Source: Phormidium sp. SL48-SHIP (lineage in GTDB: Bacteria > Cyanobacteriota > Cyanobacteriia > Cyanobacteriales > Geitlerinemataceae). Taken from it: a stretch of 18,867 nucleotides of DNA. Both the position numbers and the translations under genes were made by a program. Positions 13,968 to 16,372 of this stretch are shown here, piece by piece. The notes below the pieces were generated by a model that was not told the DNA's origin, searched no databases, and worked only from the letters and a program-made list of their open reading frames with translations. The stretch spans positions 3,077 through 21,943 of the forward strand of contig SIHH01000035.1 in the NCBI GenBank assembly GCA_004299065.1, read 5' to 3'. The stretch's first letter is position 1. Every line of letters starts with the position of its first letter.

Positions 13968-14291
13968 GTGGTATTTGGATCATCTTCCGGCAACCCCCCT
14001 ATGACCCCAGCAGACACCCCCAAATTGCTGAACCTCGCTCAGACTCTGGTGTCTGAGCAAACCTCCAAACCCCTCAATGAACTGGAACTGGCGGTTCTTG
14101 AGGGAATCCTCCTGGGACAGACCTATGAGCAAATTTGTCAAAACCAGAACTTCGCTCAGGGGGTTGACTATATTCAAAAATGTGTGGCTTACCAACTACG
14201 GCGGCGGTTGACCCAGGCCATGAAACGAGGCGGCTACTTGAGCGAGGACGCCAATAACCTAAAAAAAAAGACCTCGCTCGTAAACTCCTAG
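13968..14291 (+). CDS. Small LuxR/sigma-70-region-4-like HTH module of the type normally fused to the N-terminus of cyanobacterial STAND proteins (zero-frame product)
   Basis: The ORF runs from GTG 13968, or more likely ATG 14001 (MTPADTPKLL...). LNELELAVLEGILLGQTYEQICQNQNFAQGVDYIQKCVAYQLRRRLTQAM matches the L-N-(D/E)-x-(Q/E)-x-x-V...G-x-T-Y-x-(E/Q)-I...Y-I motif that I recall at the N-termini of many cyanobacterial NACHT/NB-ARC-WD40/TPR proteins. The ORF ends 19 nt after an A9 run. Confidence 0.6.
   Translation: MVFGSSSGNPPMTPADTPKLLNLAQTLVSEQTSKPLNELELAVLEGILLGQTYEQICQNQNFAQGVDYIQKCVAYQLRRRLTQAMKRGGYLSEDANNLKKKTSLVNS
14261..14270 (+). other. A9G homopolymer; zero-frame A_AAA_AAG heptamer (candidate -1 frameshift / transcriptional slippage / phase-variation site)
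   Basis: The zero-frame codons are CTA AAA AAA AAG (14259-14270). The heptamer A AAA AAG (14264-14270) is in the X_XXY_YYZ register and is identical to the E. coli dnaX shift site. The -1 frame is open from 14258 into the downstream STAND ORF. Confidence 0.5.
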
Positions 14292-14362
14292 ACCTTCACA
14301 AACAACTCCAGACCCCGGCGACTCCCTCCTCTCCAACGCCAACGCCATCTCCCAATCCCACG

Positions 14363-16372
14363 GTGTATGGACCGCCTCCGTCACGACCTCACCATAATCT
14401 CCCGGCCCTGGAAACCAGTCGCTTTATTGGCTACGATCGCCAACTCAGTCAACTCCTCAACCTCCTCGGCGACTCTCATCCCGCTCATCGTATCGGCATT
14501 CACGGGATTGGCGGAATTGGCAAAACCACTCTGATTCTCGAAGCCGCCTATCGCTGTTGGCTTCAGGAACAGTTTGACGCCATTATCTTTACTTCCGCAC
14601 AACAACAGCGACTGGTGGGCGATCGCCTCCTACGGCGTGTCAAACGCGATCGCCACCTCGGGGACATCTTCCACACCATCGCCCGAGTTCTCCAATATCC
14701 CCGCATCCTCGCCGCTGACTTTCAGATCCAATTTGAGCGTATTCAGGATCTCTTGAGTCATCGCCAAGTTCTCCTAATTATCGATCACCTCGAAGGCTTC
14801 GACGATGACGACGAGATCTGCGGCTTTCTCTACGAACTCCCCTCAACAGTTAAAGCGGTCGTCACCCGGCGCGACTATATGGCATTCGATATCACCATCG
14901 CCCTGGACTCCCTATCGCCCAAAAATGCCAAGGCGCTCATCGCCCATCAACTCCAAGAAAAGGGGATATCTGTGAACACAAAAGACCAGCAGCAACTCTA
15001 TGAAAAAATAGGTGGTATCCCTGGGGCGATTCTCTACAGAATTGCACAACTGGTTGGGGGCTATACCTTAGATGACCTGTTAGCACCCCTAAATTTAGAC
15101 ACCTCTGATGCTCTCACTTGCTATTGTTTTGAACGTTCGGTGATGCCATTGCGGGGAACAAGCGTTCATCGCCTCCTCATGGCGGCGGCAATTTTCCCAA
15201 AACCGATGCTCGATATCGCCCTTTTGACAGTGGCGGCGGTCACTCAAACCGATGAACTTGCCCAGTTACAACGCCTATCTATGCTCACACAAATGCCAGA
15301 TGGACGTTATGCCATGTTACCCCTGACTCGCAGTTATGCCCTCAGGGAACTTCAGCAAAATCCCGAGTTTGAGGAGGATGTCCGTCAGCGGTGGTTGGCC
15401 TGGTATCGGCAGTTTGTGGACACTCATTGTCCCGCAGATGCCAATCTTTCGGAACTGGAGACGGAATGGGAGACGCTCCTAGAGGTGGTTGACTGGTGTA
15501 TGGGTCGCGATCGCTATCAAGATGTTCTCCATTTTTGGCGATATCTACATCAGGATGACGAGGGTCACGATGGAGACGGCGATCGCCTCAAGACTTTGAT
15601 AATTCCCTTAGATTGGGACGCCTGGCTAATTCAGAAGGCCCAGATGCGTCAAGATTGGTCTGTTGCCCTAGAAGTGATGCAGCAGAAGGGTCCGAAACTC
15701 ATAATACAAGAAAAACCGAATAATATTGACGAAGCTGAACAATGGCTTCAAAATGCTTATGACTTACAAGAATCCTGGCAACCCAAAAATAAATTTGATT
15801 TAATGATATTCATGGCAAATATACGAGCTGAACAGGAAGATTTTGCTGGTGCACTTCAATGGATAGCCGAAGGCAAATTAATTATTGAAAATCAATCAAA
15901 ATCACATGAAAACCCTAGCAGTTCCAACCTTAAACGATTTAAATTGAAGCAATACAAAGCCCGCTTACTGTATACAGAAGGAGAAATACACTACAAACTA
16001 AAAAATAACCAAGCATCCAAAAAATGTCTTCAAGAAGCATTAACCATATCAGAATATTTAAACTTAGAGCAAGCCGAGTTTTTTAGCAAAAAATTACTCT
16101 CTAATATCGCCATTAAAGAGGGAGACTATGAACAAGCTGAATCCTTACTGAGCGACTGTTTAGAAATCGCTAAAGACAATCAAGATACCTACCGTACCGC
16201 CTTTTGTTTGAGGGCGATCGCCCAATTGGAGTTAGCACGAAATAATCCCAGCCAGGCGATCGCCCTGGTCAGTCAAGCCCTAAAACAGTTCGAAAACTTA
16301 GGAATGATGGTAGAACAACAAGAAACTCAAGTCCTCTTAACTGTGATCGAATCTGAAGGAACTACGATTTGA
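14363..16372 (+). CDS. STAND NTPase: NB-ARC (AP-ATPase) P-loop domain + winged-helix/helical region + C-terminal TPR sensor-like repeats
   Basis: - Pre-P-loop: NLPALETSRFIGYDRQLSQLLNLL
- Walker A: IHGIGGIGKTTL
- Walker B: VLLIIDHLEGFDDDDE
- RNBS-B/sensor-I-like: KAVVTRRD
- L..L-type motif: LDSLSPKNAKALIAHQL
- GLPL-like motif: IGGIPGAILYRIAQLV
- C-terminal TPR-like repeats: e.g. YTEGEIHYKLKNNQASKKCLQEALTI, LSNIAIKEGDYEQAESLLSDCLEIA, LRAIAQLELARNNPSQAIALVSQALKQF

The listed start is a GTG with no Shine-Dalgarno sequence. The first in-frame ATG lies after the P-loop, so the true N-terminus is probably supplied by the upstream ORF. Confidence 0.8.
   Translation: MYGPPPSRPHHNLPALETSRFIGYDRQLSQLLNLLGDSHPAHRIGIHGIGGIGKTTLILEAAYRCWLQEQFDAIIFTSAQQQRLVGDRLLRRVKRDRHLGDIFHTIARVLQYPRILAADFQIQFERIQDLLSHRQVLLIIDHLEGFDDDDEICGFLYELPSTVKAVVTRRDYMAFDITIALDSLSPKNAKALIAHQLQEKGISVNTKDQQQLYEKIGGIPGAILYRIAQLVGGYTLDDLLAPLNLDTSDALTCYCFERSVMPLRGTSVHRLLMAAAIFPKPMLDIALLTVAAVTQTDELAQLQRLSMLTQMPDGRYAMLPLTRSYALRELQQNPEFEEDVRQRWLAWYRQFVDTHCPADANLSELETEWETLLEVVDWCMGRDRYQDVLHFWRYLHQDDEGHDGDGDRLKTLIIPLDWDAWLIQKAQMRQDWSVALEVMQQKGPKLIIQEKPNNIDEAEQWLQNAYDLQESWQPKNKFDLMIFMANIRAEQEDFAGALQWIAEGKLIIENQSKSHENPSSSNLKRFKLKQYKARLLYTEGEIHYKLKNNQASKKCLQEALTISEYLNLEQAEFFSKKLLSNIAIKEGDYEQAESLLSDCLEIAKDNQDTYRTAFCLRAIAQLELARNNPSQAIALVSQALKQFENLGMMVEQQETQVLLTVIESEGTTI

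Follow-up and report, generated by a model that had tools for sequence, protein, structure and literature searches.

Why should a DNA-binding domain and the ATPase module that follows it be encoded in two different reading frames that part company at a run of nine adenines? The question is raised by a locus in an 18,867-nt stretch of DNA from Phormidium sp. SL48-SHIP (contig SIHH01000035.1, positions 3,077 to 21,943; this whole stretch is called the window below). There, a short open reading frame (ORF) for a helix-turn-helix (HTH) protein runs through an A9 tract and stops, and a long ORF for a STAND protein with NB-ARC and tetratricopeptide repeat (TPR) domains continues from the tract in the -1 frame. 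A preliminary description made from the sequence had hedged between programmed -1 recoding and a phase switch, and the comparative test that was set beforehand came out in favour of this hedged claim. Judging from the comparison of related loci, we consider it somewhat more probable than all other readings taken together that the A9 tract is a selectively maintained recoding site, with programmed recoding as the best explanation for the split.

In the 0 frame, which is that of GTG 13968 and ATG 14001, positions 14259-14270 are read as the codons CTA AAA AAA AAG, and the end of the ORF reads AAT AAC CTA AAA AAA AAG ACC TCG CTC GTA AAC TCC TAG, that is, NNLKKKTSLVNS followed by a stop. The A9 at 14261-14269 is the sole A/T run of 8 or more in the 18.9 kb of the window, and 0.13 runs of 9 or more are expected under a model of independent and identically distributed bases. 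Beyond the TAA at 14255-57, the -1 frame is open from 14258 to the TGA at 16370-72. Its first start-like codon is GTG 14363, ahead of which (...CCCAATCCCACGGTG) no Shine-Dalgarno (SD)-like motif was seen, and its first ATG, at 14879, lies 172 codons on, past the Walker A motif. On the plus strand between the two ORFs we found no terminator and no promoter-like site. RefSeq lists two genes here, WP_410253427.1 (hypothetical protein) and WP_410253426.1 (tetratricopeptide repeat protein). A -1 shift at the run, or an mRNA with ten A's, gives a fused product of 790 aa from ATG 14001 with the junction ...NNLKKK-DLARKLL..., and QLQTPATPSSPTPTPSPNPTVYGPPPSR is the predicted -1-frame peptide across 14270-14362 and the GTG codon.

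Most of this anatomy had been anticipated. The position of the run, its 0-frame reading, the upstream -1-frame stop and the opening that follows it were all borne out to the nucleotide, as were the absence of a -1-frame start before GTG 14363, the missing SD sequence, the first ATG beyond Walker A and a continuous protein of about 790-800 aa after a slip or an A10. Two details had to be amended. The HTH ORF had been taken as 107 aa long; its frame stands, but gene callers and homologues prefer ATG 14001 (96 aa) to GTG 13968 as its start. The slippery heptamer A_AAA_AAG is present as described, and a second, overlapping heptamer in the same phase, A_AAA_AAA, is to be added to it (all coordinates are collected in Table 1).

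The two ORFs encode complementary domains. Pfam models matched by the downstream ORF are NB-ARC (1e-8), AAA_16 (1e-8), TPR_12 (1e-12) and TPR_MalT (2e-9), and among PDB sequences it is closest to the NB-ARC of plant Sr35. The 96-aa ORF gave no match to local copies of Pfam and NCBIfam, the former being older than PF26355 (HTH_VMAP-M9), the family that it carries in precomputed annotations; a hidden Markov model (HMM) built from seven distant homologues covers residues 8-74 of the 96-aa product (E = 4e-13). AlphaFold2 predicts helices at residues 3-75, low confidence at residues 76-127 and a confident NB-ARC domain from about residue 130. The shift falls at residues 88-90, at the beginning of the interdomain linker, and the short product is therefore a whole domain. 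We also considered whether HTH_VMAP-M9 extends over the shift, with its last helix in the -1 frame. This was rejected, as the HMM stops at residue 74 and scores the 0-frame and fused products alike; residues 76-127 were likewise dropped as a part of the HTH domain because AlphaFold puts them in a low-confidence linker.

Related loci were gathered from reference genomes (tblastn), by a DNA pattern scan of metagenomes, by look-ups of variant 96-aa ORFs and by a protein search with a clade-D query. The tract was counted in the 31 loci that contain it, from soda-lake Sodalinema, Geitlerinema and Phormidium, using consensus assemblies, which hide minority length variants. It is A9 in 30 of the 31 and A10 in the remaining one (L008); no A8 or A11 was present among them. 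The metagenome scan, which allowed A6-A14, contributed two loci only. The exact 669-aa protein occurs on 10 contigs and the exact 96-aa protein on 11, all with A9 (three NCBI metagenome-assembled genomes (MAGs) and many independent SRA assemblies). These contigs are 99.6-99.98% identical to the window and derive from a cyanobacterium of soda lakes, which is annotated either as Sodalinema sp. or as Phormidium sp. SL48-SHIP. Besides this window type (group A), the family comprises group B, which adjoins COP23, trypsin and S8 peptidase genes; group C, which adjoins uvrB and takes in Geitlerinema sp. P-1104 and "Cyanobacterium T3Sed10"; clade D, which is Phormidium-like and has two subclades; and group E, a single locus (L032). 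The -1 ORF past the run is intact, at 700, 704 or 709 codons, in each A9 locus with enough sequence, the exceptions being L009 and L013 of Phormidium sp. OSCR. The 0-frame TAG at 14289-91 is kept in groups A, B and C and is missing from clades D and E, which have 0-frame tails of 58-90 aa. The check for conservation that the preliminary description had proposed was thus answered in the affirmative: both the A-run and the split are kept by 30 of the 31 loci and by six diverged lineages. The split is therefore genuine and fixed, and it is old when measured against the divergence of the family.

As an observation on the OSCR loci, their second frame disruption occurs in that lineage alone, and the orthologous L029-L031 are intact.

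The ancestral protein is, by the evidence of the alignments, the fusion. Among relatives that are at least 67% identical, the HTH is missing from the called protein, indicating that these are split. Homologues at 47% identity or less, on the other hand, are single ORFs, whereas the window DNA encodes the same domains in two frames. The nearest fused homologue, P0046 (797 aa, 47% identity, with PF26355, NB-ARC and TPR), is syntenic with group B, sharing its COP23/trypsin setting. Where P0046 reads NNLRKKDLPRYLL the predicted fusion reads NNLKKKDLARKLL, and over the wider junction ...KANNLRKKDLPRYLLQ... stands against a predicted ...DANNLKKKDLARKLLD...; both pairs agree residue for residue. The P0046 residues ANNLRKKDLPRYLL are encoded in frame by CTC CGA AAA AAA GAC. 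The single-ORF HTH_VMAP-M9-NB-ARC-TPR arrangement recurs in over 60 other cyanobacterial homologues, which are 770-800 aa long. The preliminary description had asked whether orthologues are fused, and the distant homologues are indeed single ORFs of about 770-800 aa, the nearest of which aligns over the junction as predicted.

Independent initiation of the downstream ORF had been called unlikely, and the comparison agrees, for this ORF has no conserved start codon. Groups A and B and most group C alleles have GTG at 14363, L025 has CTG, and clades D and E have ATT. GTG 14363 was rejected as the real start because it is not conserved.

In L025 (789-2546) the STAND gene is called as 585 aa and has lost its P-loop, an annotation artefact that follows from the CTG at the "GTG start" codon when the ORF is treated as independent. 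In clades D and E (L009 6180, L029-L033) the open stretch of the -1 frame reaches back to a GTG within the HTH ORF, 30 codons 5' of the run, and databases therefore contain 734-739-aa proteins with the out-of-frame N-terminus MCRLPATAAVDPGHE....

Both ORFs are under purifying selection. The six A9 lineages (groups A, B, C and E and the two clade-D subclades) show 57-89% amino acid identity, synonymous divergence (dS) of 0.15-0.83 and a ratio of non-synonymous to synonymous divergence (omega) of 0.27-0.47, and omega of the HTH ORF is 0.12-0.27. In a simulation, a 700-codon ORF stayed open in 0.5% of trials after 120 neutral substitutions and in none after 330. Within populations, 7 synonymous and 2 non-synonymous sites were found in group A and 18 and 34 in group C, giving a combined 25 synonymous and 36 non-synonymous changes against a neutral expectation of 78:22 (P = 9e-4 against neutrality). 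No nonsense mutation was among these 61 segregating changes, and nonsense mutations or indels were found nowhere except in L009/L013. In the 93-nt linker, the differences between the window and clade D fall 5/0/11 by -1-frame codon position, and the changes amount to 10 synonymous and 6 non-synonymous in the -1 frame compared with 5 and 11 in the 0 frame. The linker thus evolves as -1-frame codons although it has no start codon, which means that it is read in the -1 frame, and -1-frame coding begins with the first codon past the run.

We propose that the locus is one gene for a 790-aa HTH-NB-ARC-TPR STAND regulator whose frame is broken by the A9 tract in the interdomain linker. Standard decoding would yield a 96-aa free HTH domain, and a net -1 change of frame at the run would yield the 790-aa HTH-NB-ARC-TPR protein. 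This change could come about by RNA-polymerase slippage, with one A added to give an A10 mRNA, or by a ribosomal -1 slip of tRNA-Lys on A_AAA_AAA or A_AAA_AAG, and every route would lead to the same junction, ...NNLKKK-DLARKLL.... Both kinds of event have precedents: A runs longer than 7 lend themselves to programmed transcriptional realignment, A_AAA_AAG and A_AAA_AAA support ribosomal -1 frameshifting, and slippage is exemplified by Thermus dnaX (A9), by two-ORF dnaX genes with 7-10 A's and by Shigella mxiE and spa13 (PMC3711429, PMC5009743). Of what is associated with transcriptional realignment, the sequence features are found here, namely an uninterrupted A run of more than about 7-8 nt at the frame junction, with run and split conserved and both ORFs selected. 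Of what marks a dnaX-type ribosomal site, the heptamer is present, and the 3' stem-loop and the 5' SD-like element (at about 10-14 nt) are not. The label "dnaX-type" in the preliminary description therefore holds for the heptamer and fails for a downstream stem-loop and a conserved SD-like element.

The observations that weigh against programmed recoding are of two kinds. Some lie in other features of the locus and are taken with the rival explanations below: an A10 allele, a lineage that looks dead, rather high omega values and gene conversion around the tract. The others concern the slip itself, which is deduced from comparative genomics. For a downstream stimulator, the segment 14271-14360 has a minimum free energy of -4.7 kcal/mol (z = +0.21; 114 of 200 shuffled sequences are at least as stable), and no conserved pairing was found across paralogues. 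Two candidate stimulators were rejected. An 8-bp hairpin, GAGCGAGG/CCTCGCTC, which encloses the run in a 221-nt fold, is not conserved in groups B and C and clade D, and the GAGG at 14244-47, 16 nt 5' of the run, considered as an SD-like stimulator, is TCGG in group B and GCGG/GCAG in clade D. With neither a stem-loop nor a conserved SD-like element, RNA-polymerase slippage is at least as likely as ribosomal frameshifting. A near-invariant tract together with the lack of stimulators favours slippage at the level of expression.

The main rival is phase variation at the DNA level, in which slipped-strand events would switch the locus between A9 (OFF, HTH only) and A10 (ON, full-length) and selection on ON cells would keep the long ORF; we regard it as unlikely. 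Replication slippage on poly-A tracts is a source of phase variation (PMC3711429, PMC5009743), and a homopolymer in a coding region is the classic design of a contingency locus (PMC3711429). The present locus resembles such loci in having a poly-A tract in coding sequence and one relative in which a tract one nt longer restores the frame. That relative, L008, is a MAG contig with A10, in frame, and is 96% identical to A9-bearing clade-D proteins including P0041. An uninterrupted gene is thus tolerated, and tract length does change, on short time-scales. Intermittent selection would also account for intact ORFs with moderately high omega, and diversifying, mosaic paralogues fit a conflict- or immunity-type gene, which are often phase-variable. 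However, tract length at contingency loci is typically variable, and here it is near-invariant across strains, paralogues and species: in the consensus assemblies all loci but one have A9, over six lineages and many samples, and neither A8 nor A11 occurs. Searches without a length bias (the A6-A14 DNA pattern, tblastn and a fused-N-terminus protein search) gave only A9 apart from L008, the coverage of which is just 7x, and seven in-silico A10 fused alleles were absent from an exact look-up in 15 billion proteins.

An inactivating frameshift is a less probable explanation still, and we consider it improbable. The loci would then be pseudogenes or genes for a stand-alone HTH, with an A10-to-A9 deletion at a hot spot spread by gene conversion and the STAND ORFs left as relics. 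In L009 and L013 a second lesion does accompany the A9, a deletion of about 142 nt in the NB-ARC domain after Walker B (L009 6789-6803), and the gene looks dead. NCBI annotates two separate genes. Omega is 0.27-0.47 within the A9 clade and lower, 0.15-0.26, towards the in-frame outgroup; values of 0.3-0.5, like a ratio of non-synonymous to synonymous polymorphism (pN/pS) of about 0.5 in group C, are rather high, as is expected either of fast-evolving receptors or of partly relaxed constraint. The 5' module, comprising the upstream region, HTH, run, linker and P-loop, has moreover been homogenised by conversion, with dS of about 0.05 among groups A, B and C compared with 0.3-0.9 further 3'. The A9 could have spread in this way, so that the lineages are not fully independent, and the module has diverged so little (dS 0.05-0.5; three synonymous sites) that conservation of the A-run taken purely by itself is statistically unremarkable. 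Against relics, six lineages with dS of up to 0.83 retain uninterrupted ORFs of 700-709 codons, when the neutral chance of an open ORF is at most 0.005 at 120 or more substitutions; polymorphism is biased towards synonymous changes (P = 9e-4) with 0 of 61 nonsense; and between groups A and D the module carrying the A9, which both keep, has reached a dS of 0.3-0.5 while the linker kept its -1-frame constraint. The hallmarks of pseudogenes (omega of about 1, further lesions) were not seen, L009/L013 aside. The recently frameshifted gene that the preliminary description had listed as an alternative is accordingly unlikely, with intact -1 ORFs under selection in six lineages.

Two independent genes, with the STAND protein starting at GTG 14363, either de novo or by re-initiation past TAG 14289, and needing no covalent HTH, are very improbable. 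Gene callers and RefSeq do annotate the locus in this way, SD sequences are often missing from cyanobacterial genes, and the GTG is shared by groups A and B and most group C alleles. Yet L025 and clades D and E have other codons at this place (CTG and ATT, respectively), the next ATG lies past Walker A, the 93 nt 5' of the GTG are under -1-frame coding constraint and align to in-frame homologues, and all more distant homologues are fused. Finally, the A9 might be an artefact of base calling, as had also been raised at the outset, or of assembly, with a plainly fused A10 gene behind it. Homopolymers are error-prone on some platforms, but this reading has a negligible probability and is excluded by A9 in more than 25 independent assemblies (SPAdes, MEGAHIT, Logan) from several paralogues and species, with A10 called where it is present (L008).

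When window positions 14270-16372 are compared with L021, L024 and L007, dS between groups A and B is 0.05-0.08 up to codon 480 and then 0.79 in the C-terminal TPR, and between groups A and C it is 0.05 over the first 130 codons and then 0.3-0.9. In L001 and L019, a four-SNP (single-nucleotide polymorphism) patch at 14344-14349 (ACG CCA TCT to ACC ACG TTT) is identical to group C, which indicates a short gene-conversion tract. On these sequence comparisons, the pattern points to paralogues that are mosaics, shaped by recombination or gene conversion, with diversified TPR sensor ends.

The Geitlerinema sp. P-1104 contigs L010 and L011 (3' ends) and L007 (5' end) stop in or just past the shared region from CTACGGCGG to A9-GAC. 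These breaks can be put down to near-identical 5' modules in at least two paralogues (a repeat-induced assembly break).

Programmed recoding at the A9 tract would place the locus among several known systems. The closest are Thermus thermophilus dnaX and the two-ORF dnaX genes of Chlorobi and others, which likewise have 9-10 uninterrupted A's in a coding region (PMC3711429, PMC5009743). Polymerase slippage there gives mRNAs in different frames and two products with a common N-terminus, and in two-ORF dnaX the long product needs the slip, as is proposed here. Those genes, however, encode a clamp-loader subunit rather than a STAND regulator, and slippage is deduced here from sequence. E. coli dnaX also has A_AAA_AAG in the right phase and, from a single start, makes both a short product and a long one, but its shifted frame leads to the short product (gamma), whereas here it would lead to the long one, and its SD-like element about 10 nt upstream and its 3' stem-loop are absent or not conserved in the present locus. 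In Shigella flexneri mxiE and spa13 (T9/A-runs), full-length protein is made from two overlapping ORFs only after polymerase slippage, and the mxiE product is a transcription activator (references cited in PMC3711429; PMC5009743). These genes belong to other protein families and another group of organisms, and slippage is experimentally verified there.

In domain order, the predicted fusion resembles GutR, MalT and AfsR, with an N-terminal DNA-binding HTH, an NB-ARC/NOD ATPase and a C-terminal TPR sensor, although sequence identity is negligible and here the HTH is encoded in another frame than the ATPase. Some single-ORF homologues are named "LuxR family glucitol operon transcriptional activator" by JGI. 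As for E. coli copA, a -1 slippery site at a domain boundary reportedly gives a free N-terminal domain, CopA(Z), besides the full-length protein (Meydan et al. 2017); in copA the frameshift truncates and the short form is the recoded one, while here the frameshift would extend. PADLOC assigned the locus to no defence family and returned a generic TPR model alone (E = 4e-6). Both GutR and MalT are regulators activated by inducer and ATP (PMC10936776).

Both products of the locus may be used, for example with the short HTH acting on the AAAGTTCAT repeats that lie upstream and the long form serving as a ligand- and ATP-dependent regulator. Going further, and tentatively, one could imagine that this clade of bacterial NLR-like (NB-ARC-TPR) regulators sets its ratio of free HTH to full-length protein by fixed poly-A recoding, the short HTH being a competitor or baseline repressor at AAAGTTCAT, the rare long form a signal-responsive switch, and the TPR ends being diversified by recombination. 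If so, recoding would serve as stoichiometry control for a STAND receptor and would be a simple way to fix a low ratio of receptor to effector domain or to dampen a costly NLR-like switch. Were programmed slippage to be confirmed, HTH-NB-ARC-TPR STAND regulators of free-living cyanobacteria would join the few cellular bacterial genes that need it, with a long multi-domain protein as the recoded product and an isolated output domain as the default. In the searchable literature we found no report that links programmed frameshifting with STAND NTPases. The type of recoding is already known, and the gene family would be new for it within that literature. For annotation, it matters in practice that RefSeq and MAG records present two unrelated genes, and that the ATPase of some alleles is truncated by a start placed after the P-loop.

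Table 1. Features of the split HTH/STAND locus in the window.
Feature	Position	Strand	Details
Conserved upstream region, candidate promoter/operator or 5' untranslated region (UTR)	13803..14000	+	Repeats and cross-paralogue conservation; conservation begins at AACGTCAATTCATAAAGG
Related copy TTCATAAAGG	13810	+	Sequence repeat
Four exact AAAGTTCAT 9-mers	13861, 13870, 13879 (tandem to 13887), 13944	+	Sequence repeats
Inverted repeat AAATACC..GGTATTT	13953-62 / 13967-76	+	Loop variable
0-frame ORF, 96-aa HTH_VMAP-M9 protein, MTPADTPK...NNLKKKTSLVNS and stop	14001..14291	+	PF26355; alternative start GTG 13968
TAA, -1-frame stop	14255..14257	+	One codon (CCT, 14258-60) 5' of the run; shuts the -1 frame upstream in groups A, B, C
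A9 slippery run	14261..14269	+	In-phase heptamers A_AAA_AAA 14261-67 and A_AAA_AAG 14264-70; required -1 shift or one-A mRNA insertion would fall here
Linker, 31 codons, DLARKLLDLHKQLQTPATPSSPTPTPSPNPT	14270..14362	+	-1 frame; no start codon; AlphaFold confidence (pLDDT) <50
-1-frame ORF, 700 codons and stop	14270..16372	+	NB-ARC/AAA_16 ~14420-14878; TPR ~15719-16294
TAG, 0-frame stop	14289..14291	+	Six codons past AAG 14268-70, which ends the heptamer
GTG, annotated start of 669-aa "tetratricopeptide repeat protein" WP_410253426.1	14363..14365	+	Probably an internal Val codon
Walker A GIGGIGKT	14504-27	+	Inside the -1-frame ORF
Walker B LLIID	14771-85	+	Inside the -1-frame ORF

A stretch of about 200 nt 5' of the HTH ORF is better conserved than the synonymous sites of the genes, and this holds for every paralogue group and for both clades (window compared with L009 5785-6000, L010, L011, L021, L024, L026, L012 and L032). 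From its repeats and conservation, this region is a plausible candidate operator for the HTH, which would fit short and long forms that share sites.

Two neighbours on the minus strand deserve mention. A 526-aa ORF at 12149-13729, which is divergent and adjoins the locus, has no Pfam match on record and is called as 453 aa in strain L002. In the 185-aa TPR gene at 11372-11929, the 116-nt segments 11423-11538 and 11585-11700 are about 90% identical and represent internal TPR units, which appeared as secondary BLAST matches. Within the -1-frame ORF itself, HIP1 palindromes (GCGATCGC), which are typical of cyanobacterial genomes, occur at 14415-14422, 14621-14628 and 14647-14654.

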